The notes beneath the pieces are model-generated. The model had not been told where the DNA came from. It ran no database searches and worked only from the letters and a program-made list of their open reading frames with translations. This document shows positions 2,412-48,986 of a stretch of DNA of 64,000 nucleotides, piece after piece (within the stretch, counting starts at the first letter, position 1; the number at the start of each line of letters is the position of its first letter). The position numbers and the translations under genes were made by a program. Source of the stretch: Psammoneis japonica (lineage: Eukaryota); contig QPGO01000141.1 in the NCBI GenBank assembly GCA_008632985.1, forward strand, positions 1-64,000. Direction: 5' to 3'.

Positions 2412-2861
2412 TTGAAGCCTCCCAAAATGAAGGAAGATGCAAAGAAGGGAAACATTTCTTTTGTGACTGACTTCTTCTTGAAAAATGAATGTCGTGGTCA
2501 TCCAAAGAAGAAGAAAGCAACATTTGCAATGGATGCTGCCAGCAGTGCTGCCAGAATTGACGAGGCACTTTCTGCGCCTGGGACAACAAACAACCAGTCT
2601 GCCAAGAAGACCGCTGCAGCTAAGAACAATGAGTGCAAGAAGTGCAAGGCTTCAATGGACAGTGGCAAAAGTGATGGGTCCATTGCAGTGAAGAAACTGA
2701 GGATGAATTGGTCCAAGGAGCCTCGTCTGTCAATCATGACGGGCGCAGCGAAGAACAAGTGGCTTGGCAAGAAGGGCCGGCATTGTGACAGAAACAGAGA
2801 AGCCCACTCAATGGAAGCATTGGCCAGTTTAGTTTGCAGTGTTCAGTGTTGTCAAAAATGA
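2412..2861 (+). pseudogene. Degenerate N-terminal fragment of a possible pogo/Tigger-like DNA transposase
   Basis: KKLRMNWSKEPRLSIMTGAAKNKWLGKKG...MEALASLV resembles, from memory, the HTH_psq-like N-terminus of diatom pogo-type transposases; no DDE domain seen. Confidence 0.3.
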
Positions 2862-3584
2862 TTTTGTCCTTCTCATTCTGTTGCAATGCACCTGCACAAC
2901 TTGCCAGCTCTGAGAAGATGTTTTGGACAAAACAGAAATCCATGATTCTCAACGACACACAATGAGACCAACCCAGTGGGATGCATTGTGCAATTGCTCC
3001 CAATGTTGAAAAAAGAAACAGGGAAATTGGCGCAAGCATCATTGAGATGTCATGCCACAAAGTGGGACACCAGTGGCGTGCATCATTGTGCTGTTGCAGT
3101 TTGTTGCATGCAACTTGGAAACACACAATGAACAGCAATGAATGTTGGCAATGCAAGTCACATGAACTTGCATGTTTTGTACAAACACCATGCCACAAAA
3201 AGAACCACTTTGTTTTTGCCAACACAAAAGACACAGAAACAAGCTTTGCAGCCAACGGAAATTCAATGAAGAACAAAAGTGCTCCACACATGATGCAACG
3301 CCTCACAAAACTTTGTTGGAGCTCGCAGCTCATGAGGGGCCAATGTGCTGTGGTCCAATTTAAAATGGCTTGCATTTTCTGCAGCTCACAGCATCATTTT
3401 GACCTGCCTTGGAACACCCCCAAGCACTCATGCACTCGTCAAACCCTCATGGGGGCTGTTGGACGGCTGCAAGAGCTGCACATTTGGCACTTCAAATGCC
3501 ACTTGTCAGCCCATGCCCTGTTGTCAGGTCAAAAAACCCGCCAATTTTTGCTGAAATCGGACTTCTTGTGGGAGATCAGCCACA

Positions 3585-3964
3585 GACAGGTTCCAGCCAT
3601 GGGTGGGACATTTTGTGACATTTGGCTTGTGGAATTCTGCGTGAAAGCTCTGCAGCAAAATTGCACAGCGATTGAAACTCAAACCACTGCCAACAGAAAA
3701 AGAGGCAATTTTGCAAACGCATCTCCTCCTCCACACTTGAAGCACATTGTTGTGTCATGCCTGGGCACGTTCTTCAGACATCAAAAAATGTGCCCCGTGC
3801 ATTTTTGTTGTCACAAGCCTTTGGCTTTGCAAAACAGGCACAGTGTGGAACAATTTTTTGCAACAGAGCACGCAGAAATGTGCACGTGAAACATGCGACA
3901 GATGACAAAAAACATTTTGTCACAGGTCAGAAGTGCATGGTCCCACCCAGAGCTGGAGCGCATC
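3585..3964 (+). mobile_element. MITE copy A (~380 bp, heavily TpA/CpG-converted)
   Basis: Ends gacaggttccagccatgggtggga...tcccacccagagctggagcgcatc match the family TIR; flanks caca/cgca (4-bp TSD with one CpG transition). Confidence 0.85.
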
Positions 3965-3993
3965 CGCAACTTTCTGGGAAATGCCAACAAAGT

Positions 3994-4390
3994 GATGCGT
4001 TCCAGCTCTCGGTGGGACCTTGCACTGCTGCGCTGTGACATCAAGAGTTTTTTGGATCGCATTGCATGTCGCACTTGCAGATTTCTACGTGTGACATTCT
4101 ACAAAATTGTTTCATGCTCCCCATTTTGCAAAGCCAAAGGCTTTCCATTTTCAACATTTGTGAGAATGAAAATGCTCTGGGTGTGTTCTTCAATGTCTGG
4201 AGAACATGCCCGGGCAAACTGTTGATGATGTGCCACAAGTGTGAAGGAGGAGATGCATTCGCAAAATTGCCTCTTTTTCTGTTGGTGATTGTTTGCATTT
4301 CAATTGCTTGACAAATTTGCTGCAGAGCTTGCACGCAGAATTCTACGGGCCCAATGTCACACGGAGTCCCACCCAGGACTGGAACCCGTC
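3994..4390 (-). mobile_element. MITE copy B (converted), inverted relative to copy A
   Basis: gatgcgttccagctctcggtgggacc...gtcccacccaggactggaacccgtc; perfect TSD aagt/aagt. Confidence 0.9.
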
Positions 4391-6380
4391 AAGTGGCGTT
4401 TGACTGGCTGCAGATGAGGTGAAAGTTGTGCATGGTCATGCCTGTTGTTCAAGCATTCCAGGGTGTCTGGGGAATGGACAAAGTTTGACCCATTGCTGAC
4501 TTTTTTTTTGCGAATGCACGCGCATTCGCTGCGGTGCATCCAGGTCATTTTTGTGAAAATTGCAAGCTCCCAAAAAACAGACTGCAACACGCAGATCCAT
4601 CCTCAAATTGCACTGCACTCTAACAAGACTCGCGTTGGTGTTGCAACGTCATTGTTTTTGTGCTGTCAATGTTTTTCATTGCAACAAACAAATCATGACT
4701 CAACGGATGATTTTCGGTGAAATGGTTGCTGTCATTTGGATGTCAAATTAAACATTTTTTCTGCAGGACCTTCCAGGAGGCACTCCACTTGCAAGCAAAA
4801 ATGCGTGTCCAATGCACTTTTGTGCAACCAGTGTTGAGTTTGCTGGGGAAGTTTGTGACACATGTCCCATGAGGACTCAAATGCCAACAAAAAAATTGTT
4901 TAGATGCACATGCTCTAGACACCTGCAAAAGCCCATCTGCACAAGTGTTTTGCATTCAAGTGCTCCATGCATGAGAGATGCACAACCAACGTTCAAAATG
5001 GAGTGTCATTTTGTGCATCACCTGGGACTGGAGCACATCAAAATCAAAGCAGCGCCAAAGCAAAAGAGTGGCCAGCACAGGAGCACTGTGCAAACTTGTC
5101 ATTTGAACAATCAAAGTTGACAAACAACTGCAAATTGATCATCCCTGCCCAAAGGTTTGGGTGCTTTGCTTGGGATGGCCTGCCAAGCATCCTTGCAGAG
5201 CGATTTCTGACCATGCTGCCTCAAGCTGGGCAACACCCCCATCTTGGGGCAAACAGAGCCAAGCGCCAGCCCGGCATTGTGTCTCACCTTGAGACAGCCA
5301 TGGACACAAAGGGCAGCACCAAAGCATCCCTTTCACAGCAACAAAAGGAAAATCACAAGCTGTGGGACCTCAGTGATGAGGTCAATTTGGCCAAGCTCTG
5401 CAGCCCATTGCAAGACAGCTGCCTGCAATGTTGCTCTTCATGGCAGCGTTTGTCTGGCATGAGCTCAAGCCCAGCACATGTGTGCAACCCAGAAGCTCAC
5501 AGTCAGCCAGAGGACCTTGGCCATGAGGTTGTGTGCTGGGGGTGTGCAACTGAAGCAGACTTTGTCTTGAAGCAACAACCCAGCTCCTCAAGCTCATTTG
5601 TGGCACAGCAAAGTGGTGTGGACATGCTGTCTCCATGCACCGCTGTGTGCACATGCAGCAACAAAGCCTGCCCCTTCAGGTCCAACTTGTTCCTTGAGCT
5701 GCACATCTGGGTCACAGCCACCAGGCACATGATTGCCATCCAAGGCAGTGCACGTGGAAGGCCAGGTGGTGGTTTGCAAAGGATGCAGCTGTGCCCTCAA
5801 GGTTGTGCAGCACTTGCTTGCTGACAGCACTCTTGGCAGCACCTCACCCAAACTCATGACAAAAGCAGTGGCTGCATTTTGTTGCACAAGGCAGTGGCAC
5901 AAAGTTGTTGTGCAGAGAGTCATGCTCAGCCATTGGCTGCAGCTTCTGTTGCCAGGGCATGATTGCCAGCTGCTGGCTGGTCAAGAAAGCTTGGTGCCAT
6001 GGCATGTGACTCCCTGGCCACTGTTTGGCTGTGGCAGGTGGTGATGAGTTCATGCTCCAGGTGGGACCGCACACTGCTGCTGGGCTGTGACATGAGAGAT
6101 TTTTGGTCATGTGCCATGGTGTGTGGTGTTCACATGCATCTGCACCTTTCTTGTCATGTCTGATCTGCTGTGTTGCTCAAATCAGCAATGGTGGGCACAT
6201 GACTGGAAAGGTTCTTGGGGCAACCACAGTGCAGGTCTGTTGCTTCCATGTTGCTCTGGTCACCTTGACAGGCATCTGGAATGACTTGCTTTGCTCCAAT
6301 GTGCCGCGAGACTCAATGGCAGTGCTGTGACCCAACTGAACAAACCTGTCTTCAGAGGCTGAAGCCACAACCTGCACTGT

Positions 6381-6622
6381 CTCAAACAGCTCCAAATGGA
6401 CAAAGAAAGTCCAAAATTACAAGGAACACCTCATGAGGTGAACACGACACAGAGACACAACCAAATGAGTGTGTGGTCAACCACAACTTTGATGCCCTGG
6501 CACCCCTGATTTGTCTGCACCCATGGAGGAGAGAGCATGGGAAGTTTGTCACCACAGACACACAAGAAAATGTCAATCGCTGCAGGAAACTCTAGATCCG
6601 CATGTTGCCACAAATGACACGA
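6381..6622 (+). repeat. ~200-bp dispersed repeat, copy 1 (second copy at 10698-10892)
   Basis: ctcaaacagctccaaatggacaaagaaagtccaaaat...ctagatccgcatgttgccacaaat is shared with 10698-10892. Confidence 0.85.
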
Positions 6623-9344
6623 ACTGAGGCTGCAACTTCATGTCTGTTTCAGCTGGTGAAAACTGCCGTTTTCATCATCACCTCCTGACAATTTTGCTGC
6701 AGAGCTCATGTGCAGCAATCCACACAAAAGTGTCACACAGAGCCACACCTCTGGGGCTGTGGTGTTCTCTTGGCAATGTCATGCAATGGCAGCTCAAGCT
6801 CTTGCTGGTTTGCTGTCTTGCTGGTGCCCATCCTGTGACTGTCTCCTGCTGCTTTGTCAGCAGCAAGCAGCAAAAACAAGAAAAAACAGCAAGTCCTGAG
6901 ACCCTGCGCATTGAAAAAATGTGGAAAGCAAAGTGCTGGCAAAAGCAGCTGCAAATTGTGCTGGTTGAGAAATGGTTTTGCAGAGCCGTTGTCAGCCTCA
7001 ATCTTTGCCATCACTTGGCGCTCATCTCTGAGCTTGGTGGGAGGTGGGAGCTTGGCTTTTCTCAGGTCTGGAGCTCAGGGCTGTGAAGATGAGTGCTGTT
7101 TTGTTGCTCCACTTGTGTCATTGCATGTTTGCAAACCATCATTGCAAGAAGTGTGAGCTTCTCTCCTTTGCCCAAGACCACATGAAAAGGGGAGAGCAGG
7201 CGACAACCGCGACGTGGCATGACGTGAGCGTGACATGTCAATGACGAACCATGTGACAATGCAGCATGTGGATCACGCACAATTGGGCCAGCAGTTTGGT
7301 GGCTTTCTACGTGGCCTGCGCAAGTTGAAGTGAAACGTCATCATGCACGCCTGCCAACCACTCAAATTTTCAAAAAAACTCCGCACAAATTCGTGCTTTC
7401 TCAAACCCCTCACCCAGTGCCTCCTGGCATGACGAGAAAGTGAGGGACCTGCATCCTTTTTTAAACTGAGCTCCCAGACACCCTCCTGGATGACACACCG
7501 AAAAAGGATGCAGGAGCACAAGGAGGAAGATCTCATTTCCACGGAAAAAGAGCATGTGCTCTCGTTTCTTCACGACATTGCATGAAACTTATGATGCAGC
7601 GCATGCTTTGGTCTGACATGGTCCAGCACCTGCCCTGGCAGTCTAGCGCATTCATTTGGTCTTCAAGACGAAGTGTGGATGCGCTTGTTGGGCGATTTGG
7701 GTCTGATTCAATCTTTTGTTGCGAGGAGATCTCTTGAATGACGCCTCATTGCTTGAGCACGTGTCTGCACTCATTTGCTCCAACATGGACAGCAAAGGGG
7801 AGAGAGAGCCCAAAGATGGAAACCAGACAGCCAACATGCCGTGCCATCCATTGTTGACAAGAATGATTGCAAACACTTGTCTCGTGCAATGTTCCGTTGG
7901 ATGACTCGGGTGTGTTGCGCAACTTTGCATTTTGCCAGACATCACATGACTTCAAAACTGCATGTCGCTCACAAGCAAAAAATGGCAAGGCACTGCAAGA
8001 CAAGGATGTTGTGTCCGAAGTGTTGAAGCGACATTGGATGAAGCCATCATCAGACAGTGACCCATTCAAAAACCAGAGAGCAGCCATTGACGACAAAAAG
8101 TCTTTGGTGTGTTTGTTCTGCACTCCCATGTTGAGACTGTTCTTTGTGGAGAGAGCAACCTTTGCATCTGTGATTTCATTGCAAGAATGCATTCACCGGT
8201 GTGGCAGGGTTTGTTCACGCCTGAATCTACGTCCAACCAAGTCAATCCCTTTCTGACTCGTTTCCAATCCCTGTGTGTGTGGCAAGTTGACTGGGCATTG
8301 TGCATTGAACCCAGACAGCTCTCAATCATTCCGTCTCAATTGACAAAATTGACGTGCAATCGACAATGAGCTTGATTGACATTCTCTGCATGTTGCTGCC
8401 AATCCAGCTGATCGGCCCATGCACTGCAGGCATTGCCAATCACATCTGCACAAGTTGGATCCCATCAAAAGAAGACATTGAAAAATGTGCACCAATGGAA
8501 ACCAAAAGGGACCCCCATCTTTTCTCACAGAACCGCTGCCGTCATGTGGGTCAATGCACGGACAAGTTCAATGAACGGCGCAAATGTTTCTTTTTCAAAA
8601 GTGATGTCAAGCTGAAGCGGGTGTGGCAGCCCAAGCTGCAAGGGAAGAGGCCAGAAATTGCATCTTCGAGGGCTGCAAGACAGGGAGGCCAGTTCTTGAA
8701 GATCCCTCAGTTGCACTTTGCACTGGCCGAGGGAACATCAATTTAGCCAGTGCGCAAACAATGACAACATGTTGCATGAAAATGCAAGCCAACAATGTGC
8801 GAGGCAAGACGCGGCCCCAACGACATTGTTGGACCGTGCCATTGTTGCTCAAATTCAGTCCAGAACTCACGAATTCAAAGCACAATGAAGAGAAAGTAAC
8901 AGCAAAGGACAACAAGAGCGAGACTCTTGTGCACCCACATCGTCAACACTCAACACGGCCAAAAGAACAAAAATCAACTTGTGTTTTGCGCGTCTCATCA
9001 ATTGACACACTTGCTTCTTTCCTGATTACTGAGAAACACACTGTGAGCAATGTCAGTGTCGCTGTCTCCGACGGGCTGTTGTGTGGTTGTGTGCCCTTCG
9101 AAGCAGCTGCCGAGTGACGAACGCAAACGGAATCATTCAAAGCATGTCATTCATTGTGCTGGCTGTTGGCCCCACTGTGTTCTCCCAGCATGAGCGAGAG
9201 CACAAAGCACTGAAATGGATCAATGTTGAAAAGTGCCGCGAAAATGCGTGACTTTCTACGCACGCAGCAAACATGCCAACAATCGGGGTGCTGAACGCGC
9301 GAAATGCACGTGGATGTCGACACAAACTTCCGACATTTTTTACC

Positions 9345-10367
9345 ATGTCGGCGGCGTCCTCGTCGGTGGGTTCGACATCTTTGTTGAGGTTCTTGTCGGA
9401 CGATGGTGTGAGAACACTGTTGGCGGGATGCATGACCACAAGCGGCGTCTTGTGTGGCTTGGGCCTGGAACACGCCATTGGACGCTGCGGCTTGGTGAAA
9501 AAGGCATCAGACGCCTTTGTGCTGGTGCATTGCCTCTTCACACTCTTGGCATGGCCGCTGCTTCTTCTGATTGGACTGTTGTCTTTCAGTGTTTTTGGGT
9601 TCCCTTTTGCCGTGACAGGTTTGTTCAACGGCGGCATTCCATTTCTGTTGTGCGACTGGGCTCTGTTTAAAGACTCCGGCCGTTCAAGAACAGCACGACT
9701 GTTGAATGCTGGGAAATTGTTTGGAAGTGCACTGCATCACTCAGCATTCTTGCTTGTTTGCAGTTTGATTGCCGTGCACCAAGTGGATCCCAATCGCCAC
9801 CTCCTGTCTGCTGGTGTTCCACTGCCACTCATGCACGTTTCGGCACTGCTGGAGGAGGTGTGGCCAGTGGCATGTCATTCCTTGGTGATCCTTTCCGAAG
9901 TTTGGTTTCAGTGTGAAGCCTTTGCCGCCCTGCCCACCCAACCTAGCGAAATGCAGGTGGCCTTTTACATGATGATTGTCGCACACTTGGTGTTCTTGTC
10001 GAGTGTGGGTGCCTTGATGCTTGTAAGCAAGTTGGTGAGTGCAGAATGTAGATTCGCGCGATTGTGTCTCTGAATCATTCCATGAACAAGAGTATATCTA
10101 AAACGTGCGTTTACTTTCACCCACCAGGACCCTGATGCCACAATTGTGCAACATGGTGGATCCAAGCATTGCGTTCTCAGAGTCAAGCACTGTCTACGAG
10201 CAAGAGAGAGTGCGGAAGATTCACACTCTCTTGACAAGAACAAAAACGACACAGATATAGACAACAACGCGTTGACCAACTCGGCATGCTCATACTCGAA
10301 AAACAACACTCCTATCTTCGACCAAGAAGCAAACATGCCTGCCGTCGTGGTCCATGACACGCATTGA
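9345..10367 (+). CDS. Multi-pass membrane protein of unknown function, 2 exons (intron 10035-10127); frame open but apparently recoded by TpA conversion
   Basis: Hydrophobic ORF 9345-10034; GTGAGT donor and CACCAG acceptor join it in frame to the 10146-10367 ORF; exon 1 has only one Tyr, near its 3' end. Confidence 0.6.
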
Positions 10368-16789: not shown

Positions 16790-17178
16790 GACGCGTTCCA
16801 GCCCTAGGTGGGACTCCGTGTGACATTGGGCCCGTAGAATTCTACGTGCGAGCTCCGTAGTACGAGAATTTAATTAATGGATATATTTATCTTCAACATC
16901 AAATAAACGGCCAAGTTTGTGGTACAATTATGCCTCTTACCACTCGACGTTTTTGCAAATGCACCTGCCCTACGCGATTCTTAAGACATTATAGAATCGC
17001 GCTGTAACAAAAAATGTCAAAAGTTTTTGGACGGATCGCTCAATAAGTGTACCGTAAAATGACACAAAATATCAAAAAATCACGTAGAATTCTACGTGCG
17101 CGACATACGACGAGATTCAAAAAACTGTCGATGTCACAGTTCAGTAGTACGAGGTCCCACCTAGACCTGGAACGCGTC
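16790..17178 (+). mobile_element. MITE copy C (unconverted reference copy)
   Basis: TIR gacgcgttccagccctaggtgggac / gtcccacctagacctggaacgcgtc; TSD gagc/gagc; AT-rich interior; perfect palindrome cacgtagaattctacgtg at 17081-17098. Confidence 0.95.
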
Positions 17179-17399
17179 GAGCACGTGAGACAGTGTGGAG
17201 TGCTGAAAAACGCGGCGCTCCTCAAGGTTCCTGCATTTTTCTCTCTGCCAGTGTCTTGATCCCGAGTTGCTGGCTTGAGACTTCCATGGGTGTCTTGTTC
17301 CACAGATGCCAGGGGCAATGGATTGGCAGGTGGTTTTTCTTGTGAAGTGCACAGCAGGGGGGTGAGAGGTGGGGGGGCACTCCAACATCTTCACAAGCT

Positions 17400-18467
17400 T
17401 TGGTGACTTTCAAGGTTGCTCCTCTTGAAACCCCAAGATGCATGGTTTGTCCAAAGGGCAAACCTGTTCCAAACCCAGAAGTTGTTCATGCGGATCTTGA
17501 AATGACATGCGGAGGGATCGATGAGGTGGCAGCCACAGCGAGCGGCATTTCATGCCTCGTGTTCAAACTGAAGCCGCCGCTTGCGGCTGCGACACACCAC
17601 CCCCACCACAACACGTTCACCCCAACATGACGTGCTTGGTCTGTGTCAATGGCACTCCCATCCCAAAGCCTGACAGACAGACACAGGAGCTGGCATCAAC
17701 TTGTGGAGAACTTGGCGATGCAGCGTTGGATGTTCAAAGGGACTCCAGTGCATGCGTCGAGTTTCAGCAGTTTGCATTGTCATGCGGCTGTGAGAACTTC
17801 TGCAAGATACATTGTGTGAGGATGGTTCCTTGATTGACTCCTCCAGCGAGGAAAATGTGGTTCATGTTGACAATGGCTGCCCTGTTGCATGCGGTGAACT
17901 GGAGGCACAAGTCATGTCCAGAAAAAGCACACCTGGCAACTGTTTGACTGCTGGCTTCATTGGTGAAAACTGTTGTGGTTGTCCTGCCACCTCGACCAAT
18001 TCTTGTCAGGTTTGTGATGGAGGTGGTCTTCCCCACAATTTGAGCAGGCAAATCATCCCTGGCATTTCCTGTCAAGATCGTGTGGGTGGCCTCAGGTTCA
18101 ATGTGTTGACACCCGATCCAAGATTTGATTTTATGTGCTCGGCAGTTAGCATTGCGATTGCATCGAAATAGAATTTCCAAGGATGTGCTGTCGCGTGTGT
18201 GGAGACAATCTGCTGCCTGCACCTGACAGGATCATTTTCTCTCAGCCACTCAATGCAATGACGACCTGCTTCCATGTCAGTGCTCACAGGTTTGACATCA
18301 CGCTGTTTCCTCTTTTTAAGAAAAATCTCGCCGTCCTCGTTCCTTCCCTTGTTCCACTTGTACAGGTTGAATTCTTTTCTAACCTGGGCATTGCACCAAA
18401 TGGCAGTGTTATTCCTGAATGCTCAATAGTTCAAATGGAGAACGGTGCCGAGTGCTGCGTCCCCTAG
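17400..18467 (+). pseudogene. Cys-rich repeat protein (CxVC...TCGE...CGC units), frameshifted and TpA-converted
   Basis: ORFs 17400, 17552, 17812 and 18183 carry successive repeat units in different frames; TpA reappears toward the 3' end. Confidence 0.7.
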
Positions 18468-20290: not shown

Positions 20291-22605
20291 AATATAATGG
20301 TGTATACCTCCGCTGCGCTCTTAATTTCAACAACATGCAAGGCACTGCGCCGGTAAACAAAACTTCGTCAAGAGAACATACGTCTTTTGTGCTTATTCTG
20401 TGGAGAGCAACGGCAGAATCCGCAGCGTCGAAGGTTCAAACGAAAATTCGTTTACAGCATATCCAAACAATCTCTTTTGGGGTGGAGTCGTTGCTGAATG
20501 AATTACTCGGCATGCGAAAGATTTCAAACGCGCGGAAGAACGCATGGGAACTTCAAGAAGAAGTAACCCGAAAGTTCTCTGAAAGTTGCAGTAAAAATGA
20601 TGTAACATCACATGTCGACTGAATACACACATAACCTTGAACCGCGCCAGAATTTTTACAACATCAGATTCACCACCTCCCGCAAGACTTCTGCGATGCC
20701 GTGCTAAAGTTCGAGACTAGAGACACGGCACGGAGGAGATGTCGTCTCACAAAAAAGCAGACGCAGCCATGCAGCAGCCACACACAGCTGTCACAGAAGC
20801 CACCCGCAACCACAGAGCAGCCGCGCAGCATGCCCGCTTTGATCCTTGAGGCGCCAATCATGAATGTGTCTGGGGCCCCTTCCACCATGAGTGGTGATGA
20901 GTCTGCAATCAAAACGTTTGATGTGTTTCAAGACAAAAAACAAGACAAGCCGTTTCACGGATTGGAGGAACGTCATGTTGATGGATGCCACCTCAGGACA
21001 CTCATGATGCGTTCTTGTCGGGTGAGGGGCCAGGGTTGGGGTCAGGGTTAGAAGCGAAGATTCATGATGGCAGCGCCACTGACACATTGCAAGTTTTTTT
21101 AAATCTGGGCATCAAAAACAGATGCAAGCTTTCGAGACTGCAGTCCAGGCCTGTCGAGCGAGATGAACCTTCCTTGCTGCACAACTGAAACAGCAGAGTG
21201 AGCTGTTGACACGTGCATTGTCAGCACATGATGCTCAATGCACCGAGCTTGCAGATCAGTCTCAGACCCTTCGCAGCTTGGAGATCATTCAGCTTGAGGC
21301 CAACCAGCCCAGCAGGAAAAGGGCCGTTGAACTCCCATCGTCAGAGGAGAGGAAGGAAGCACGATGGATTTGGCAGAGGGGAAAAAATCCAATCAAGATG
21401 ACATGATCAACTGTGATGTCATTGTTGATGCAAACGTTGCCTCCACTCCAAATGGCGCAGCTGCCAACTCTGTGAGAACACCAGAGATGCTGCTGATGAT
21501 GCGCTGGCTGCTTCTTGACCTTGCATTGATTCTGACGAGTCAGCGGCTGTGACTGAGCCTGTGGTGGCCTCGGCGCCAAAGCCAAAACCTCACATTGCTG
21601 CAACGCTGCTCTCAACATGGTTTGCAAGCAACAAGTCTTCAAAGAAGAAGAAGAAAAAGAAGCTGACGCTGCAGGAGAAAGTGGTGGCTTGGTGAACAGC
21701 ACAGGTGCAGGGGTGTCTTTGCATGCGCTGCTCACTTGGCTCAAGCTGCATGGACACCTTTCAGGGTGGCTTTTGCAGCTGCAGTTCCTGAACAAGGAGG
21801 CAGAGCCACAGAAGTTCAAAGCTGCCATGGAGCTGCTGGAACACATTGTGGCTGATGACCAGTGGCGCACGATCCAACTTCATGATGACAAGTCCTTGGC
21901 TTTTCACAGTGTTTGTCATGCCGTGCAAAATGCATGCCTGGATGCGATGAGGAAGATGGAAGCAGACACTGGCATGAAAAAGCCACTGGAGAACAAGAAG
22001 AAGGAATGAACTCAGCCTCACTTTGTGGGTCTTGGTCTTTGAGACATGGCGCACAAGAAAAAGCAGAACACACCATCCATTGGCGAGAAGCAAACGAGCA
22101 CCTTGGCAGGATTTGTGAAGAAGGTTGCATCCAAAGCCATGGGCACCAGTCCCAAAAAACCCATGAACCCACATGCAACGAAGTGGGCAAAAGCAAAACA
22201 TGTGCCAAGCTGTTGTGTGTTGCAGCGCAAACAGAAGCTCACACTGCAGAAACATCTGTTTCAAATTTGGCGCCGTGCAACTGCTGTGATGCATCTGGTC
22301 GATTCGGATGAAGCAAGTGTGCTTTTCTCTCTGACAACTCCACAACGTGCCAATCATCATGGTGCAAGCAGACCAAGGTAAAATGCATGTGCAGCAAAAA
22401 AAAACTGTGTGTTTCAAAAATTTGGTTTGGCGCAACGACCAGTCAACTTGGATGAACAAGTTGAAAGTGCTTTTGTTGCCAACAACTCCAGAACTTGTCT
22501 TCATCATGACACAAGCAGGCCAAAGTAAAATGCAATTGGGTGGAGTAAAATGCACATCAAGTGATTGGGCACTGCAGCACATTTGCAGAACCATCTGTTT
22601 CTGTT

Positions 22606-22962
22606 TCAAATTTCATTCAATGCAACAACTGTGTGTCCAACAGATTTGGACACCTTTTTTGCCAACAACTTTGATGCTTGCCAATCATCTTGACACAACA
22701 TTGTGTTTGGGCTGTCCAAAACAAACTTGCAGAGATTTTCAACATCTCTTGCATCCTCAAGACTCTTCCCAGGAAAAGTTTGGCACTGAACCCACTCTGG
22801 ATTGGCAGAGATCTGATGCCACACTTGCAAAAACTCTTTCTCATCAGCTTGGTTTGGATTGCAAACATTTCCATTCCACCCATGCTTTGGTCTTGACTTT
22901 GGTGTTGGCTTTCCAACAACATCAACTTCAATCAAAGATCCCGTGCATGAAAACAGGGGCAT
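22606..22962 (-). pseudogene. rusA: RusA-family Holliday-junction resolvase, degenerate
   Basis: VVGKPTPKSRPKHGWNGNVCNP matches the RusA N-terminal GxPxPKxRP...GxxYxP motif; RDVENLCKFVLDSPNTMLCQDDWQASKLLAKK matches DxDNLxKxxxDxLNxxxYxDDxQ...K. Confidence 0.75.
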
Positions 22963-23372
22963 GTCCGAGATGGAGAATTTGGGTGATCGGATCTTTCAAG
23001 GACGCCCTCGTTTTTCTTCTTTGTTGCTTGCACACCATCTTCAAAACTGCTTTGTGTTTTTGGCTGAGGCACATTTGCCACACCACTGTTGGCACTTGAC
23101 AAACCACGATTGACGCTGAGCACCGTCACGGAACTTTGGCACTGGACCCAGTCTGGACTGGCAGAGATCTGATGCCACACTTGCAAACTCTTTCTCATCA
23201 GCTTGGTTTGGGTTGCAAACATTTCCATTCCACCAGTGCTTTGGTCTTGACTTTGGCGTTGGCTTTCCAGCAACGTCAAATTCAGTTGAAGATCCTGTGC
23301 ACAAAAACAGGGGCATGTCCAAGATGGAGAAATTGGGCAAGCAAGACTTTCGAGGATGCCCTCGTTTCTTCT
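22780..23372. repeat. Direct duplication of ~240 bp (22780-23018 and 23135-23372) covering the RusA N-terminus
   Basis: tttggcactg..ggcagagatctgatgccacacttgcaaa...ccctcgttt is present twice. Confidence 0.9.
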
Positions 23373-24167
23373 TCCTTGATGGCTCACCTTTGCCAGCATG
23401 CTGCCAAATCTTGATGATGACGGTGGGCAATGGCCATGCTCTCAAAGTCTTTTCCACCTTCGTCATTGCTTGCGCTGTCTGCAACTGTTGCGTCATTGGC
23501 AGTTCTTCCATCAAAACTTTGCCCCTTGACCATTCTGCAATCCACTGCACTTTGGGCATTCAGGAAACTTCTTTGCAGCATCCTCCACAGTGCAGCAGGA
23601 GAAAAGGCCTTCCACATGAGGATTTGCATGTGACGGCAACACACTTCCATCGCTCATCGCATGAGCTTTTGTGTTTTGATTGATTTTTGATTTTTTCAAA
23701 TTTCAAGATGACTCAACACACGACTTGATGCATGACTTGATGCACTCTCACGATTCACAGCCAAGTTTCAATGGAAGAACTTTTTTCCTCTGTGCACCCC
23801 CTCCATTTCCCAACTTTCAGCCGAAAGTTGGAGTGCTCCACGCTCCAAAAGGGGGCAACTTTCGCCAAAAGTTCACGCTGCACACAAAAGTTTGATTTTT
23901 CCAAAATGTTGGAGGCAAGAGAGGCACAAAAGCTCTTCTGAATGGAGTTTGGTGCAAAGGAAATTCTGATCTTAAAGTTTGCACAAGATGTCGGAGAGCC
24001 TTTTTGGGTCTGTGTCAAAAATGCCTGCTGCTGCTGTGTTGAAGTGCAGTTCTGAGCTGCACACTTCGGTCAAGTCGCTGGCTTCTTTTTTGAATTAAAG
24101 GGTCATTGCTTCTCTCAAATCAGCATGGCTTGTGTGGCACCACTGTGCATGCTTGTTGAGTGCAACA

Positions 24168-24495
24168 CATGCAGCTTCAATGCACACAACATGGATTTGC
24201 CCCAGTTGGATGAGGCACACAAGATCCACTGGAATTTCAACCCACCAACCCAAATCCCTGTGCATGAAGAATTGCAAGACAAGTGTTTCACCCATCAAAG
24301 AATCAAGTCAGCACTGTTCAAAATGTGCTCAAAGGGACTCAACAACAAAAAGGGAGTTGGATGAGGCACACAAGATCCACTGGAATTTCAACCTGCCAAC
24401 CCAAATCCCTGTGCACGAAGAATTGCAAGATCACCCATGAAAGAATCAAGTCAGCACTGTTCAAAATGTGCTTGAAGGGACTCAACAACAAAAAG
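24168..24495 (+). pseudogene. Two tandem degenerate copies of the 5' end of the kinase gene (source ~15910-16070, inverted)
   Basis: FHPSKNQVSTVQNVL vs kinase YHPSRNQVSTVQNVL; gatttgccc vs gatttaccc; aatgtgct vs aatgtact. Confidence 0.88.
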
Positions 24496-24554
24496 GGAGG
24501 GCAGAAGAGTTGAGGGGGGGGGGGGGGGGCAAGTGCAAAGCCAAGTGTGTGCAG

Positions 24555-24840
24555 CATGTCATTGAATGGTCGTTGATGCCACACAGCATGGCACCTTGGT
24601 TGCACATGAGAAGTGGAGCAATGACAGCAGTGCAGCAATCAATGCAGCAGAGAATGCCAGGGGGTGAAGGAGAGCACAGGCGCAACAAGAGACACACTTT
24701 TTTTCATTCTGCAGGGACCTTGGGCAAATGCAAAACGGCATTTTGAAGGTTTTGTCAAACCAGTGAAAGACATGAAAGTTTTGCCCCCTTGGTGGAGTGA
24801 GAAGCACAAGGCTGTGCTTTTCTTTGGTGGCTGCAATGTG
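24555..24840 (+). pseudogene. Degenerate fragment homologous to the 18702-20290 gene (inverted)
   Basis: KRHFEGFVKPVKDMKVLPPWWSEKHKAVL vs KEHFDGFLKAMKDTNFLPPWWNEKHEAAL. Confidence 0.8.
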
Positions 24841-26244
24841 GCACACAAAGGGCAGGAAGCTTTTGCTTTTCCAGGCTGTCCAACAAGCCTTGACTTGGAC
24901 AAGAGCCTGATGTGGACAAGACAAACTGCCAAGCCACAATTCAAGCCCTGAAAGACAGTTCTCTGAACAACAAGAAGCACTCTGATGGGGAAACACAAGA
25001 CATTGTGAATTCTTTAAGGTCAAAGCATTGCCAAGAATGCACTCAGATCTGGCAGCATCCATGGGGGCGAAAGGCTCCATTTGTTTGATGACTGATTTGT
25101 CTGCTGCAAGTGTTCTGCATCTGACGGTGCATGCACCAGCCACAGGTGGACATGTTGACTCAAAAAAGCAGACTGACACTTTTCATGTCCAGTGCAAAAG
25201 ATGCTGTTGAGAACGGAAAGGAAACATCAAGCTTGGTTGCACCACTTCCAAAATTTGAGCAGTGCGGGCCTATGACACTGTCACTGAGATTGAAATCAAA
25301 GCTGGTGAACAGTGGCAGACACCATCATCAGGACCTGAGTCCAAACTGAACAAAGCACACAATTCTCTTGCTCGTTGTGGAAACTGTGGCAGAGTGCAAA
25401 GCTTGTCAATGGATCCAATCACATTGGAGGGGCTGGTTCAGCACAGTGCAACAATTGAAGAAAAAGAGTGAATTGAGAAAATGATCCTGTGATGTGAGCA
25501 AAGATTCCGCATGATTTTGGGGGTGTCGTGCCTTGCCAGAACATTTTGCATCTGATCAAAATCAACAACCTTGCCAAAAAGAAAGGGAAGAATCTGCCAC
25601 ATCCTCATGTGATGGGTTTAGAAAATGATGCCAGTGAGCGTTTCTTGTCCAAGTGTTTGCAAGAGCAGCAGAAAAGGAGTGAAGATTTGACATCTCACCC
25701 CAAGGCCAACCGTTGCACATTCAATTTGTGTGGCACAAAGCCAGTCACAAACCCCTGCAGTGGAGTGACAAGTGACAGCCAGCAAGAACAAGTTGCCAAA
25801 ACCCAGAAAGAGGACAAAGCTCACAATCACACTGTCAAGATTGATCCATTCCCAAATGACACGCCGTTGTTAAATGCCACTCACATGGATGTTGAGCAGC
25901 AATTTAATGTGATGCAAGCAATGCAAAACAAGCTTGCACGGCAGCTCCAGTTTGCAACAAGGGCCAGATTCGGGTTGAATGGAAATGACATGTCATCCTG
26001 CATCATTGTCACGTGTTCCTGCAATGCAAAATGCAGTGTTACAACATGGTGGGGTAACCCCCTAGAGGTCAACCACCCCATGCCAAAGACTGCCCCATGA
26101 GGCAGCCATCAGGATCAGAACGGCAGAGAGGAATTGCAAAAGGACTGTCCAAAGAGGCAGAACTCCTCGACAAGGCAGCTTTGTAACTTCTAGGCGTTAT
26201 ATGTATTAATGCTGATATCGACATTATCTTGCTAAAATTACAAG

Positions 26245-27912: not shown

Positions 27913-29199
27913 TCCGATAAAGGACAATGTCAACAATGTTGCCACTGCTTTTCCTTTTAGCACGCGCGCGTGAGAAGTTAGTTTTGCTGGCAGTGCGGCA
28001 GTGGCGCGGGGGGAGGGACAGATGCGGAGCTGGGGTGGAACTGACTGGCTGGGTCATGCAGGCAGGAAAGGGCGTGGAGTTGTGGCAGGGGTTGTTGAGA
28101 CGGGAACGGAGTTTGACAGAGCAGCGTGTGAGGTGGTCAGCAAGGGATTTGGTGATGGCAAAGCCAGTGCTTTGGAGACCCCACTGTGCGGGAGCAGCGG
28201 TGTGATGGGTGAGGCCAAATCGGCGGCGGAAGTGTTTTTCCATGCGGTGGCAGCTGCGGGGAGTGTGCCGGAGTGTTGTTCTTAACTCCGCTCTGGTGTG
28301 CATTTGTGATGACATCATCACATGCATTGAGTCAATTTTTTTACATTCACGCCAACGTGAATGTCCTTGAGCAAACTCTCAGATCTCACAACGCCCCTCT
28401 GGCAGTTCCCTGACCACCAAACACAGAGGGCGAAAACAATGCACGTTGCATGGGCTCCACCATGATGCCATCCCCCCATTGTCCCCAATGCCCAGCCATG
28501 CTGCTGCCCCTGTCCGCAGCAGCAATCTCTCCTGCACAAGCTCAGCAGTTGTCGAGTCATCGTCAAGTGGGCGAGGAAGTTGCAAGTTGGCTCTCATGTG
28601 CAGATTCAGTCGTTGTTGAGTTGAGTGCTCTGCAATGTTTGTTGTGACATTGCAATTTCGAAATGGCAATTTCAAGCTGCAAAAATCCAAACATTCAAGT
28701 TGTCATTGGGCTGCTGAACAAGCTGAGCTGTGCTGTGTTGTGCCGATGTGTGTCGTGTTGCTTGTGCCAAGGTCTTGTTCTTTCAAGGCTTCTTTGTTTG
28801 ACCAGGCATCACTTCCATCCTAGATTTGGCAACAACCAAGTCAAGCAGCAAAAAAATCCATCATGCAGATGGATGACATGCAGGAAAAAACACAAGCTGC
28901 AGCTGCTGGTGGTTCAAGAATGCAAAGGTGAGAACCAAAGCAGAGATTTGCCATGGCTGAATTTTTGCTTGCATTGACCGTGCGATGGAATTTTTGCTTG
29001 CATTGACCGTGCGATGGAACCAGCAGCAGAGCTCACCCTGCTCTGCCAAGCATGAGGATGTTTGCCAAGTGCATTGGATGCTTTTTCTTTGCAGCTTTGG
29101 TGCCAATCGGCCTGATTGGACACAAAAAATTTCTCGTGATGGCGGCGTTCCCATGCTCCGCTTTTGTGTGATCTGTTTTGTCTTGTGAGCAGTTCAGCC

Positions 29200-30680
29200 A
29201 GCAGTCATCAGAGTGTTCGCTGCTGGGTTCACATTTTCCACTTTGTTTCTCAGAATGGTGGATCTTGCGTGCTTGTCCGTCATTGCAGTCCAAGGATTCA
29301 TCACTCAAAGAGCAGCATGATTGATCCAATTCATGTTGGAGATGTGACAGTTGCGCTTGCAGCAACGGTTGTTCTGACCCCGGTTGCGGCAGTTGTGTTT
29401 ATCCCGGTCGTCATGCTTGAAGGATGCTTTCTTGTGACGTGGATGTCCTGGGTGATTGCACTCCTGGTCATTGTGTCCAGACTTTTTGCAAAAGTCACAG
29501 TGCTTGGGTTTTCAGGGAATCTTGCACCCAGACGTTCCCTTGCAAGATGCCTTGTGGACGTTCTTCTCATTGTTGCAGTCATCGCTTCCATGACGCCGAT
29601 CATTCCAATGCTCATTGCATCTCTTCTTGTGTTTCTCTGCTTGAGGGTTCACACCATTGGCTGTGAGTTTGTCATGCCAAGCTTGCGGTGCGCTCTTGAT
29701 GAGCATGTTGACATGATCATCGTCTGTCAAAGTGGGCTGTGGGTCCAGCGCTTCACAACGGGTTCCAGTCCTGGGTGGGACTTTTTGTGACATTTGCCCC
29801 GCAGGTCAATGGATGTGTTCATCTTTGACATAAAACAAACGGCCAAGTTTGCAGTGCACATGTCTCTGTTCGCACTCAAAGTTTTGGACAACGTGCCTGC
29901 CCTGCACCATTCTCAAGACACTCGAGAATGGCGCAGAAGAAAAAAATGTTAAAAGTTGTTGAATGGATCGCCTGACAATTGCACTGTAAAATGACACAAA
30001 ATTTTTGCCAAAATCACACAGAAATGTGCATGCGCGACATGCGACACGATTCAAAAAACCATCGATGTCACAGTTCAGCAGCACGAGGTCCCACCTGGAC
30101 CTGGAATGCGTCTCACCTTCGTTGACGATGTCCATCAAAAACTGCTGAAGGTCAGCTGTCATGCCATCTGTCGCCGAGACGAGCTGTTTGTGTGTCACTC
30201 CGGATGGTTTCTTGAGGGTCTTCAGACACTTGATCTGGTTGCATTGAGGCATGTTGCTCTTGAGGCAATGTGTCTTGAACGTCTCAAGGACTGCTTGGAA
30301 CATGTCTTCTCTCTCCAGCGCCGGATCTTCAAATTCCTGATGTGCTTGCACCCAATTGATCTTCACTGCACTGATGAGGCAAGTGGAAAAGATGCCAAAC
30401 TTGGACAGGCCTGCTTCACAGGGCTTGTGGTCAAAGATCTCCTTCACCTGTTTTAAGAAATCACATGAGAAATGGAGGTCATCATCGCCATGCTCACTGC
30501 TGAAAGATGTCACTTTCTTTTCATGCGCTCCACTGTGGATGTCGTTTGGGACATCTCAAACTTCAAACTTCGCAGTGGGGCCCTTGAAGTGTTTCGGAGT
30601 TTCCCACTGTCCGGTGAGTTCGAAGGAAGGCATCGCACAGTGTCATTGGAAGTCATCGTGAAAAAACGCGTGAAGTGAAT
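29200..30680 (-). mobile_element. Decayed LTR-retrotransposon gag (Ty3/Gypsy-like), split by MITE D
   Basis: CCHC knuckle CDFCKKSGHNDQEC at ~29457-29499; QIKCLKTLKKP and LTDDDHVNMLIKSAPQAW gag-like motifs; removing MITE D plus one TSD restores NEGEALDPQP. Confidence 0.75.
29757..30112 (+). mobile_element. MITE copy D (converted, internal deletion)
   Basis: aacgggttccagtcctgggtgggac...gtcccacctggacctggaatgcgtc; TSD tcac/tcac; aligns with the reverse complement of copy F. Confidence 0.92.
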
Positions 30681-30692
30681 TCACTGTGCACT

Positions 30693-31084
30693 GACGCGTT
30701 CCAGCCCTAGGTGGGAGCTCGTAGCACTGACGTGTGACAACAATAATTTTTATCATCCGTCGTATGTTTCGTACGTAGATTTCTACGTGTGATATTTAAA
30801 AAAAATTGTCCAGACTCGCTGTTTTGCGAAGCCCCAGACGTTTTATATAACAAATTTATAGAAACAATAATGCACCAGTTACATTCTTCAATGTCTGAAG
30901 AATGTAACTGGCTAAGTAAAAAATGATGTACTTCAATCATGTGCGAGTTTGTGCGTTCGCAAAATTGCCTCATTTTCTGTTGGCGATCATTGACATTTTA
31001 ATTACCGTGTAATTTTACTACGGAGCTCGCACGTAGAAGTCTACGGGCCCAATGTCACACGGATTCCCACCTATGGAACGCGTC
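30693..31084 (-). mobile_element. MITE copy E (unconverted; interior of the A/B type)
   Basis: gacgcgttccagccctaggtggga...tcccacctatggaacgcgtc; TSD cact/cact. Confidence 0.93.
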
Positions 31085-39740: not shown

Positions 39741-40329
39741 CGCACGCAACATAGGATGGAGAATATTTGAAAGAGCAGGTTCGAGCTGGGCGGAATCTCG
39801 GCGGAACGGACAAGACACACGGATGAGTTGATATTATGCTCGTGATGCCTATGATGGGCGTACTTGCCTATTGAATGCGGTTCCGAGGTCCGATTGTTGC
39901 AGCCGATTGTGAAAGACCTGCCAGAGACAGCATTAGATAGATCTCATAAAACGAAGACAGCCGATTGAGCGTATAAGCTTGTCACAGCTTGTTCCTGAGG
40001 TGCTCAATTGTTTTACTTGCTTTCTATATGGGGGGTTAAAATTTCCTCGAGGTTAATTTACGACATACTGCTGCAGGCATGTAACAATCTTGGGACTGGC
40101 CTTGCCCGTAGCCCCCACCTCTTGCAATCGCTCAACCAACAATTCCTCATCGCAGCAGTCGGCATGGCACACTTCTCGCATGTCCAACCATTTCCTTGAT
40201 TTCTGAAACACGCATCAGTCAGGGAGCTCCAAACAACTGTGTCATAGAGGATCGGTTGTTGACTTGAGAAATTGTTTTGAAGAAGACAGAGGGCTTGGGC
40301 AGGAGGTGCATTGTGCATTTGTAAACCTT

Positions 40330-43300
40330 CCAGCAGTGGTGCACGTTGATGCCATGATGCTTGACATCTGGCAAGATTGAGGCTGGCAGTTGCAATGATT
40401 CTCTTGAAAGGCTTTCAGAATGGGCACAAATTGGTGCCACAGGTTGTCCCAGCAACAATCAAAAGATGGACCCTGGCTACAATCAAGGCCTTCAAAGTCT
40501 CACACGACAAGGAACGGCAGGGTGCTGTGGCTCGCACATGCATTGCCTGATGCCCAGCCGCTCCTCCGGTCCACTGAAGAACGCTTTTTGGCAAACCATG
40601 TTTCACAATCAGCAATTGAAGCTTTTTCATTGCTGAAAATAACTTGACTGGGTGCAAAAACTTTGCTGCAGTGGCCGTCGGCAATGTCGTCATTGTGTCC
40701 AGACCCGTGTTGACGTTTCAAAGGATCATCGCCTGCAGCTGCTCTCACCTCATCCTCGCACTTTCTAAACTTGGATTGGAAGATGCTTTTCACCAAACAG
40801 AAGAGCTGTTCCTTGTCTTCTGAGCATTCTTTGGTGAAGAAAATCGATCTCGCCAATGGCTCTCATCTTCTCTGCACATCTGGTGGCTGCTTTCCCTCCA
40901 ATTCAGGGGGCAACAAGGCAAAGGTGCAGTCACCCATTGCAAAGGTGTGCCAATGCCTTGTGCAGCTTGTGACGCGTTCCAGGTCTAGGTGGGACCTCGC
41001 ACTGCTGCACTGTGACATCGACAGTTTTTTGAATCGCGTCGTATGTCGCGCACGTACATTTCTACGTGATTTTGGCGAAATTTTGTATGATTTTATAGTA
41101 CAATTATCAGGCTATCCATTGAACAACTTTTAACATTTTTTTTTCTACGCCATTCTCGAGTGTCTTAAGGATGGCGTAGGGCAGGCGTGTTATCCAAAAC
41201 TTCGAGTACGAACAGGGATAGATGTACTACAAACTTGGCCGTTTTTTTTTATGTCGAAGATAAATATATCCATTAACCAGAGTGCGAACTACAGAGCTCG
41301 CACGTAGAATTCTACGGGGCAAATGTCACAAAAAGTCCCACCTGGGACTGGAACCCGTCTTGTTTTCTGCCAACAGGTTGAGCCACACTTTGCTTGTCCT
41401 TCTGCCAGAGATCAAAGCTTCAAAGAGGAAGAAAGTTCTTGAGAGACAAAATTCCTCAGTCTCAACTCAAAAGGATCAGATTCTGACAAAAAGTTTTAAA
41501 AAAATGACCAGATCCACATTTCAAGTGCTGTCACTCCTTTGCCAGCTGGGCCGGCACCAACTGATCCCCACACTCCCAGTGCACAGTCAAGTGTGGCAGG
41601 AGCTTGTGCAGGATCAGCAGGAATGGGCATCACCAGAAGGTGACACCCAGCATCTGTGGATCTGCGTGGCATTTGCACTGGAACCTGCGCAGAAAATTCT
41701 CTGAGACAACAGAAAATGATGAGCAATGACAACCAGCACACAAACCAACCGGCCGCAACACTCGTTTTCCACTGATGAACTTTGCTCATCATGCCATGAC
41801 AAGGATGCACCATTGGCAAATGTGGACAGAATGGGCTTGTTGGAGCCAAATCAACACCGTCTGAGAAGGGCGACATCAGTGCAAGAAGGTGTGTAGAAAC
41901 CTGTGTAGAAGCTGAGGGTGTGCAGCCAACATCAAAAAGTGGCAAAAAGTCAAAGCTCAAGAAGAAGGAAGTTTGCTCTGTCAACCAGAACTTGGCATTG
42001 ATTTTTTGCCAATCTCCTTCAAGATCTTCCTGCACATCTTGCTTGGAGCCAGGATGTGTGGCTTCATCAATGAGCTCACATGCCAACAAGATCAAAAGGC
42101 AAGGGGTCCCTGTTGCTTGTCTGGTTTCACCTTGTGTGAGAGGGTGGCTGCCTTGTGCCAAGGAGCTTCCAGCAACATCTGCAGGTTGTTCACCAGATGG
42201 ATTGATTTGTCACTCTTCTTTTCTTTGCTCTGAGCCAACGCTTCCTCCTTTTTCTTCTGGTGCTTTTCAACCTCCACCTTTCTGGCTCGTTCTTCACACT
42301 CATCAAAGGACTTGAGAAAAGTCTTTGCAGCCCTCCTCTGGAGGAGCATGCAAGAAACTTTGCAGACAGTCTTCGCAGCCTTCCGGGTGGGCCGCCATGT
42401 GACCAATGTTGCCAAAACAGACAATGGGCCCAATTCCTTGTGTTCCTCTCTGCCTCGGCTCATTAAATGCTGCATCACAAGACATTTTCTTGAACCGCAG
42501 TGAGGCCCAGCAGTGCATTGGTGGCAGAGAACTGCATCAAATTCATTGGGGTTTTGTTGGTGCCTGGCCCACTCAGTGTTCAATGCCTGCGTGTGGCAAT
42601 CTGTGAGGCACTCCCAGCAAAGAAAGAGAGCACAACCAGGCCGCATTTGCCGCTGGCCAGCAAAAGCAGCTGTTGGGGTGGTGGTGGCACATGGATTGAC
42701 TTCTTCTTCATCAGCTCACAAATCTCTTGCATTTTTTCTTGGTGCGCCCCCCATGAATCATGGCTGGTTTGAAAACCAAGTCAGCAGCGACAGCATTTTG
42801 AAGTGTTCGGCATGTTCAAGCAAGATGGAAGAGCTCGTGGGGGGGGGGGGGGGGCACAAACAACATGACAACCATCGAAGCATTGAGATCAATGTCAACA
42901 TTTGGGCCCTTGGCTGTTTTCAAATGCTTGCTGGGACAAGAAACGGGCTTCGCATTGAGCTGTCTTCAACAATCAAGCTCACATTGGTCTCCCTCTGCTC
43001 GTGATTGCAAAACATCCAGCAGGGCTCTGTGTCTTCTTTTTGTTGTGTGGGGATGCTTGGAGTGTTCCTGCGCTCACTGTCGCAGATTGTGGTGATGCTG
43101 CACCCATGCCATGGGGATGATGGCGGAGCTGTGCAAGCTGCGGATGCATGTTTGTTCACGGCCACATGTCATCATCATGTGCGTTGAGCTTGCAATGCCA
43201 ATGTGCCATGCATGCCAACATGCACATGTTCTCAAGCAAACAGCTCTAATTCAACAGCTCCCCCTCTGCAAACAGAGAGATCTTTGACCACAAGAAACAA

Positions 43301-45150: not shown

Positions 45151-45153
45151 GTT

Positions 45154-48949: not shown

Positions 48950-48951
<2 letters not shown>

Positions 48952-48984: not shown

Positions 48985-48986
<2 letters not shown>

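Follow-up and report, generated by a model that had tools for sequence, protein, structure and literature searches.

Context-dependent loss of TpA from non-genic blocks of a Psammoneis japonica contig, a probable case of regional hypermutation

Hypermutation directed at the dinucleotide TpA has been described in the chlorarachniophyte Bigelowiella natans, in whose mutation-accumulation lines 231 of 302 nuclear mutations fell within two integrated viral regions (Mettrop et al., 10.64898/2026.01.13.699255). As reported in that preprint of 2026, the larger of the two regions, of nucleocytoplasmic large DNA virus (NCLDV) type, is transcriptionally silent, the mutation rate reaches ~6e-7 per site per generation, which is ~1000-fold above background, and the mutations of the viral regions are almost all A>G/T>C, all of these GC-biased ones lying on TpA. 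The preprint also describes clusters of windows that are poor in TpA and rich in CpA+TpG, and it proposes an ADAT2-like DNA adenine deaminase (10.64898/2026.01.13.699255). Our literature search brought up no other precedent for TpA-directed A:T>G:C hypermutation, and no enzyme responsible for it is known. Here we describe a stretch of 64,000 nucleotides from Psammoneis japonica (positions 1 to 64,000 of contig QPGO01000141.1, assembly GCA_008632985.1; hereafter the window), in which nine sharp-edged blocks have lost nearly all of their TpA. We hold it to be probable, at roughly 70%, that these blocks are non-genic DNA under regional, DNA-level hypermutation of TpA to TpG/CpA (A:T to G:C) with accompanying loss of CpG. 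As reported for B. natans, the changes are A>G/T>C at TpA giving TpG/CpA, they leave windows poor in TpA and rich in CpA+TpG, and they are regionally confined. A sequence-only reading of the region 20700..26050 had claimed that the few TpA surviving in such DNA sit almost only in TARA or its complement TYTA (TA followed by A/G and then by A; hereafter the rule), and had taken this context rule for the mark of an enzyme recognising duplex DNA rather than of drift or gene conversion.

Loss of TpA and CpG in a two-state mosaic

The G+C content is 47-48% across the whole window; the TA content is nevertheless two-state, bins of 250 bp holding either 0-2 or ~10 TA. Over 500-bp windows the observed/expected ratio (o/e) of TA is bimodal, with 51 of the 128 values at 0-0.1 and the other mode, past a trough, at 0.5-0.7. 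Blocks were called by two-state hidden Markov model segmentation on TA content, the states being termed LOW and HIGH, and this gave nine LOW blocks that make up 31.1 kb (49% of the window) and 32.9 kb of HIGH DNA. In the LOW blocks o/e is 0.02-0.09 for TA, 0.25-0.59 for CG and 1.54-1.90 for CA/TG; the corresponding values in the HIGH blocks, taken without a 328-bp island formed by a miniature inverted-repeat transposable element (MITE), are 0.49-0.65, 0.79-1.08 (in HIGH blocks of at least 1.8 kb) and 1.1-1.3. TA loss is restricted to sharp-edged non-genic blocks and is accompanied by CpG loss, a frame that was absent from the sequence-only reading. The region which that reading had flagged corresponds to block 20719..26039 (TA o/e 0.03, CG 0.33, CA 1.73, TG 1.75), where 11 of 12 surviving TA are in the rule. 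The remaining blocks are 1..9943 (TA o/e 0.05, CG 0.38, CA 1.72, TG 1.82; 33 surviving TA, 26 in TARA/TYTA), 17163..18131 (TA o/e 0.02, CG 0.46; a single surviving TA), 27980..30707 (TA o/e 0.05, CG 0.56; 8 survivors, 7 in the rule), which holds a converted MITE copy, 40110..40985 (0.09 and 0.45; 5 survivors, 3 in the rule), 41314..45515 (0.06 and 0.33; 16 and 13), 47385..49334 (0.03 and 0.59; 4 and 3), 52038..53489 (0.06 and 0.25; 6 and 4) and 57591..61240 (0.05 and 0.33; 13 and 8). Within block 20719..26039 a run of ~20 G (24517-24536) stands right after a 150-bp tandem duplication, in which 24204-24356 resembles 24355-24499.

Pyrimidine-purine (YR) steps number 242.9 per 1000 in LOW and 248.0 in HIGH DNA. 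Relative to HIGH, LOW DNA shows a deficit of 38 TA and 32 CG per 1000 and a surplus of 30.5 CA and 35 TG; TA stands at 0.08x its HIGH level and CA/TG are raised 1.4-1.5x. The YR total being constant, the difference between the two states therefore consists of transitions at TA and CG. The direction of change was read from 17 HIGH-to-LOW homologous pairs (3229 aligned columns), in which 169 ancestral TA had become CA in 64 cases and TG in 55, while 12 were retained and 38 had other fates; with each LOW site counted once, 139 ancestral TA gave 53 CA, 42 TG, 7 TA and 37 others. The 164 ancestral CG of the same pairs read CG at 56 sites, TG at 41 and CA at 41. Change in the reverse direction was rare in these 17 pairs: 2 of 210 CA sites had become TA, and no TG site had done so.

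By trinucleotide, A>G was most frequent at TAC (0.59), followed by TAT (0.33), TAA (0.27) and TAG (0.16), and the twelve contexts lacking a 5' T stayed at 0.04-0.14; C>T reached 0.17-0.43 at NCG and exceeded 0.11 in no other context. The signature of polymerase eta is WA>WG. This bears on error-prone repair, by which T:G mismatches arising from 5-methylcytosine deamination would enter non-canonical mismatch repair and be refilled by a polymerase-eta-like enzyme with A>G errors at WA. The losses of TA and CpG do coincide in the same blocks, as such repair would have it, but A>G after A is at background (0.04-0.10 at AAN vs 0.16-0.59 after T), no higher in this small sample than after C or G, and a 20-fold, nearly complete erasure of TA, which is more depleted than CG, exceeds what a by-product of CpG repair would leave. 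We therefore regard error-prone repair as very improbable.

Along the LOW blocks CA and TG succeed one another in random order (runs z of -1.26 to +0.63; variance ratio of 0.93-1.10 at 5-80 steps). One-strand conversion tracts are thus lacking, which speaks against a processive single-strand deaminase and against passage through RNA. Such a passage would be involved if mobile-element RNA underwent ADAR-like A-to-I hyperediting and was then reverse transcribed into DNA. ADAR prefers a G 3' of the edited A, and TAG is here the slowest of the T-A contexts (0.16). With CA and TG interleaved at random rather than coordinated by strand, with no reverse transcriptase found in the LOW blocks (Pfam, 143 open reading frames), and with a MITE, which is a DNA transposon having terminal inverted repeats and target duplications, converted in place, this route is largely refuted and we give it next to no credence, although a U before the edited A is favoured by ADAR (10.64898/2026.01.13.699255).

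TA and CG are both self-complementary YR steps and are lost together in all nine LOW blocks, by transitions only, with both strands hit equally and independently. These features would also suit a mutagenic modification of the palindromic TpA, either 5-hydroxymethyl- or 5-formyluracil made by a TET/JBP-type enzyme or N6-methyladenine, which in CpG-methylated silent chromatin would act by mispairing or deamination, parallel to CpG decay. 5-Formyluracil mispairs with G. However, surviving CG lack an analogue of the TA rule (CGRA/TYCG made up 146 of 712 in LOW vs 479 of 1816 in HIGH), and the authors of the B. natans preprint favour deamination (10.64898/2026.01.13.699255), so that a modification of TpA appears unlikely to us. 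The loss of CpG shows a 5'-T or AT-flank effect of its own, separate from the TARA rule. GCGC, the least depleted context, stands at 2.4x among the CpG that survive and CCGC/GCGG at 1.5x, while the TCG contexts are the most depleted (TCGA 0.5x).

Evidence on ancestral states came in part from the MITE family, which is ~390 bp long, carries terminal inverted repeats and is flanked by target duplications of 4 bp (GCTC, TTGT and GTGA in the alignment of copies). An unconverted copy at 40971..41359 (+) forms the TA-normal island of 328 bp (TA o/e 0.92, CG 1.54), with LOW DNA on both sides and with its edges at the element ends; another unconverted copy, at 16790..17178 (-), lies at the edge of a LOW block and served as proxy for the ancestral state. 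In comparison with these two, the converted copy at 29758..30115 (-), inside a LOW block, reads CA/TG at TA sites and TG/CA at CG sites. Two diverged converted MITE-like copies in inverted orientation (3579..4397), also inside a LOW block, are the source of several TCTACG/CGTAGA survivors, and a further stretch of the family is found at 30692-31084. As an unconverted MITE island stands within LOW DNA, it cannot be position alone that has decided on conversion at every time; conversion either is older than the insertion of the 40971..41359 MITE or is episodic, as in B. natans. In an accurate-read run (X1) from the same sample as the best matching dataset, the summed word depth, which is not copy number, reaches up to ~120,000 on the MITE vs ~60 on most LOW and HIGH DNA, which hints that the family is very abundant. 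A tiny run (X3, 0.16 million letters) gave contigs of 47-154 nt solely on the MITE (16841-17178).

Long open reading frames (ORFs) reside in HIGH DNA, and include those with an HA domain, a protein kinase, FG-GAP, a sugar/MFS transporter, PPR and a VDE lipocalin. The named best matches of the MFS transporter ORF were all diatoms, at no more than 56% identity; protein searches with an 814-aa ORF and with the VDE-domain ORF returned no match. Together with the Pfam domain set, the one MFS gene points to a diatom-like photosynthetic stramenopile. Genes are spared even where T>C is always synonymous, TA o/e being 0.58 and CG o/e 0.94 at the T3|A1 codon junction (269 sites; 6208 codons of 13 ORFs). 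Because these synonymous junctions keep their TA, genes are exempt from the process and not just protected by selection. Among the contigs of another run (X2, labelled 'DNA?'), one skips 90 bases (15085-15176) that have GT..AG ends when read on the minus strand. The gap is an intron of the kinase-domain gene and suggests that X2 consists of transcript contigs. X2 covers parts of the HIGH blocks, the LOW blocks of 14001-34000 being almost uncovered, and from this gap in cover we draw no conclusion as to silence.

The LOW blocks are without convincing coding content. As many as 143 of the 244 ORFs of at least 90 aa in the window fall in LOW blocks, overlapping on both strands; LOW blocks are crowded with long spurious ORFs because DNA free of TA has no TAA/TAG stops, and such ORFs will mislead gene finders. 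Pfam searches with these 143 stop-to-stop ORFs gave one marginal match and nothing else, and PHROGs searches with 53 of them gave none. The marginal match is to the RusA Holliday-junction resolvase (22609-22995, minus strand; E 4e-5, 24.7 bits vs a cut-off of 22.8) and has no PHROG counterpart. It lies in block 20719..26039, in a segment that is locally duplicated, 23132-23378 resembling 22776-23023, and it may be a phage-like or viral relic or a chance match.

The LOW sequence is carried by the read-derived X1 contigs with 0-3 differences, and these contigs cross the borders between LOW and HIGH. Record 2 (17151-20585) passes from block 17163..18131 into the adjoining HIGH DNA with 3 differences, record 6 spans 24514-28028, and records 3-6 match block 20719..26039 with 0-1 differences. 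Where LOW DNA differs between the window and X1, the variants repeat the kinds of change described above (CA/CG, TG/CG and CA/TA), and the X1 contig reads TG at 28415-6 and 24243-4, places at which CA stands in the window. LOW-type blocks were also encountered elsewhere. In a survey of 50 metagenome loci encoding MFS relatives (993 windows of 500 bp), three loci carried such blocks, two of them distinct (TA o/e 0.06-0.08, CG 0.40-0.68, CA/TG 1.6-1.9), and each adjoins the MFS gene: one of 656 bp is common to two assemblies (L020 1498-2153; L021 94-749) and the other is of 1343 bp (L032 3269-4611). The blocks of these loci account for all 5 of the 993 windows with TA o/e below 0.15, and their MFS genes are less than 50% identical to any of 120 compared proteins of the MFS search. 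The metagenome blocks are independent support for the signature.

A sequencing or assembly artefact, with modified bases misread or with context-specific error k-mers, might be suspected from a pattern that is context-specific and regional, like methylation-linked base-calling errors. It is hardly credible, as the X1 contigs are continuous over LOW and HIGH DNA with so few differences, the same signature is present in three contigs of other, short-read-style metagenome assemblies, an unconverted MITE stands within converted DNA with edges at the element ends, and the process in B. natans was measured with Illumina data (10.64898/2026.01.13.699255).

Context of surviving TpA

Between 20700 and 26050 there are 15 TA against 365 expected from base composition, and 13 of the 15 are in the rule; the figures are 11 against 249 for 41400-45100, all 11 in the rule, and 29 against 606 for 1-9000, with 23 in the rule. 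The by-eye tallies of the sequence-only reading for these stretches (20.7-26.0k, 41.4-45.1k and 1-9k) were thus reproduced, and TAAG/CTTA (9 and 8 cases) is the next commonest class of survivors, just as that reading had it. With the nine LOW blocks taken together, the rule accounts for 75 of 98 survivors, vs 385 of 1359 TA in HIGH DNA (Fisher odds ratio (OR) 8.2, p = 3e-21), and the excess is present in each LOW block having at least four survivors. With MITE-like DNA removed the counts are 70 of 93 vs 355 of 1276, at 400 bp or more from the block edges the rule covers 56 of 69 survivors, and fresh TA arising from CA or TG would fit it just 26% of the time. When strand symmetry was examined, survivors were found to be symmetric (TAAA 32 and TTTA 30; TAGA 14 and TCTA 16). 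They are enriched in A at +1 (0.52 vs 0.23) and at +2 (0.57 vs 0.30) and depleted of T at +1 (0.07 vs 0.28), with little effect past +3.

A flat rate of loss is beaten by a context model (likelihood-ratio test, chi2 152.5, 6 degrees of freedom). We expressed survival as an index, the TA fraction of YR steps in LOW divided by the same fraction in HIGH, from symmetrised counts; TA outside the rule have a value of 0.025, those protected on one side 0.177 (116/3686 vs 720/4058) and those in TYTARA 0.81, and the value for RTAY is 0.012. In aligned repeat copies, where survival could be normalised to ancestral sites, it is again not flat, 6 of 45 sites surviving in the rule vs 1 of 94 outside (OR 14, p = 0.005). 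Protection is only partial, as the sequence-only reading had noted. That the rule is due neither to drift, as that reading contended, nor to chance likewise holds, in view of the OR of 8.2, the chi2 of 152.5 and the conversion seen in repeat pairs, and we consider it very likely that a real, context-dependent mutational process is at work.

The surviving TA might otherwise have been kept by selection because they serve a function, for instance within poly(A) signals or splice donors, and some survivors do resemble motifs of this kind (TGTAAA, AATAAA, GGTAAA). However, survivors are spread across all nine LOW blocks at ~3 per kb with no recurrent survivor 12-mer, the rule is exactly strand-symmetric, and it is the product of conversion, not just survival, that depends on the flank, which selection on survivors does not predict. 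We attach scarcely any weight to selection.

The dependence of the product on the flank is seen at either side of the ancestral TA. Followed by a purine, TA gave 29 CA and 12 TG, and followed by a pyrimidine 24 CA and 30 TG (OR 3.0, p = 0.013); preceded by a purine it gave 39 CA and 20 TG, and preceded by a pyrimidine 14 CA and 22 TG (OR 3.06, p = 0.011). In the composition of LOW DNA, the gain before AA and GA is +0.22 and +0.19 for CA vs +0.05 and +0.07 for TG, and before CA, TG and TC it is mostly of TG. Dependence of the product on the flank is expected if A>G can happen on the one strand or the other, each event being under the control of the bases 3' of the A concerned. Survival in the three classes corresponds to cumulative rates of 3.7, 1.73 and 0.21, and two independent routes (~1.85 when open, ~0.1 when blocked) predict 3.7, 1.95 and 0.2. 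A seven-parameter fit gave per-route rates of 0.28 for TAAA, 0.50 for TAAG and 0.71 for TAGA, and of ~3 for TATC, TATT, TACC and TACT.

The specificity has a per-strand component. A component of duplex recognition may act alongside it, and the survivor counts alone do not choose between the two. Strand symmetry by itself is no proof of duplex recognition, because any process that is equal on both strands leaves survivors that are symmetric under reverse complementation. Of the enzyme-like specificity argued for in the sequence-only reading, one part stands, namely that the strand-symmetric context rule looks like a defined mutational activity; the other part, duplex recognition deduced from symmetry, does not, since the product responds to one flank at a time. 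As far as demonstrated, the specificity is mainly a per-strand preference for T-A-Y rather than duplex recognition.

A proposed process of TpA hypermutation

The changes in the LOW blocks are directional, they are transitions of TA/CG to CA/TG only, they fall on both strands independently, they end at sharp edges, they spare genes and they are present in accurate reads. Under regional hypermutation of TpA, the TA that survive would be poor substrates; A>G is fastest at T-A-Y (TAC 0.59, TAT 0.33) and slowest where purines follow the A, above all A-A or G-A. Either strand of each TA could be edited, and it would be because of this that protection of one side just halves the loss while TYTARA nearly abolishes it. 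The agent may be an enzyme whose target in DNA is the adenine of TpA, such as a polynucleotide adenine deaminase of TadA/ADAT2 type, and its activity would be directed at silent, probably cytosine-methylated chromatin, in which the loss of CpG would be ordinary 5-methylcytosine deamination.

That the agent is an adenine deaminase we put forward tentatively. The natural tRNA substrate of TadA/ADAT2-type enzymes, which include BjADAT2 and TadA-derived base editors, has a U before the edited A (anticodon loop); a point of difference is that these enzymes favour single-stranded or hairpin DNA. A TadA variant is reported to prefer YAC, like the maximum at TAC here (PMC13109818). BjADAT2 is described as converting A to I (read as G) on DNA and as deaminating also C at TCG (PMC10354150).

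Several points weigh against the hypermutation explanation as a whole. The DNA-active ADAT2 with a published motif, BjADAT2, is reported to prefer GAA for its adenine in E. coli, not TA (PMC10354150). The measured targets in B. natans are integrated viruses, and searches with Pfam (143 ORFs) and PHROGs (53 ORFs) traced the LOW blocks to no virus or other foreign source; mobile DNA is hit, as the converted MITE shows. The survivor counts are fitted better if both flanks scale a single rate than under the additive two-route model (negative log-likelihood 100.4 vs 106.2). Most of the ancestral frequencies were taken from HIGH DNA that is coding and from a single MITE family (3.2 kb aligned), and the context rates are accordingly rough. 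The X1 contigs are not independent of the assembly and may be its own data. The two metagenome blocks offer 10 distinct survivors, 4 of them fitting the rule, and such numbers are too small for a test of it.

On a wider and more speculative view, which we think rather doubtful, TpA would be a second CpG: a heritable mark or editing activity with specificity for the palindromic TpA step, set on silent, cytosine-methylated chromatin, would have erased TpA from essentially all non-genic DNA and left genes as 'TpA islands', T-A-Y/T-A-R-A would be the fingerprint of the enzyme, and the same system, present in Rhizaria and stramenopiles, would be an ancient and widespread eukaryotic genome defence. 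The flanking rule and the per-strand product rule together offer a fingerprint for in vitro tests of candidate enzymes, be they deaminases or modifying enzymes, and the de novo mutations of B. natans can be re-examined against both.

Comparison with known systems

In fungi, repeat-induced point mutation (RIP) likewise brings about hypermutation that is regional, saturating and made up of transitions only, that strikes non-genic or selfish DNA with a preference as to dinucleotide, and that has a bimodal genome as its outcome. Unlike what is described for RIP, which turns CpA into TpA by C>T, enriches TpA and needs duplicates, the process in the window destroys TpA and creates CpA/TpG. RIP is ruled out for the LOW blocks, as TA is at 0.08x the HIGH level and CA>TA was seen at only 2 of 210 sites.

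Decay of methylated CpG, known from the bulk of vertebrate genomes as opposed to their CpG islands and from methylated diatom transposons, is also resembled, CG having gone to TG/CA in non-genic blocks while genes are spared like islands. Of the 164 ancestral CG, 82 had become TG or CA, and CG o/e is lower in LOW DNA. Unlike in CpG decay, however, there is a loss of TA, which such decay does not explain and which is stronger than the loss of CG.

The nearest likeness is to B. natans, where, as in the window, single-copy DNA is reported to be hit and repeats are not required. The host here is a diatom-like stramenopile alga rather than a chlorarachniophyte, and our results add the TpA signature, at saturation, in a distant lineage, tied to CpG loss and to non-genic blocks. 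Coupled CpG loss and a two-base flanking rule set the window apart from what the main text of the B. natans preprint describes; the words 'context', 'trinucleotide', 'flanking', 'CpG' and 'diatom' are absent from that main text, and its Table S2 could hold contexts (10.64898/2026.01.13.699255). The depletion is also deeper, with TA o/e of 0.02-0.09 in LOW blocks vs 0.45 reported for the NCLDV region, and it extends over 49% of the window, in many blocks between genes, with no viral origin found for them. The process in the LOW blocks would be of the same kind as the TpA hypermutation of B. natans, in a variant form.

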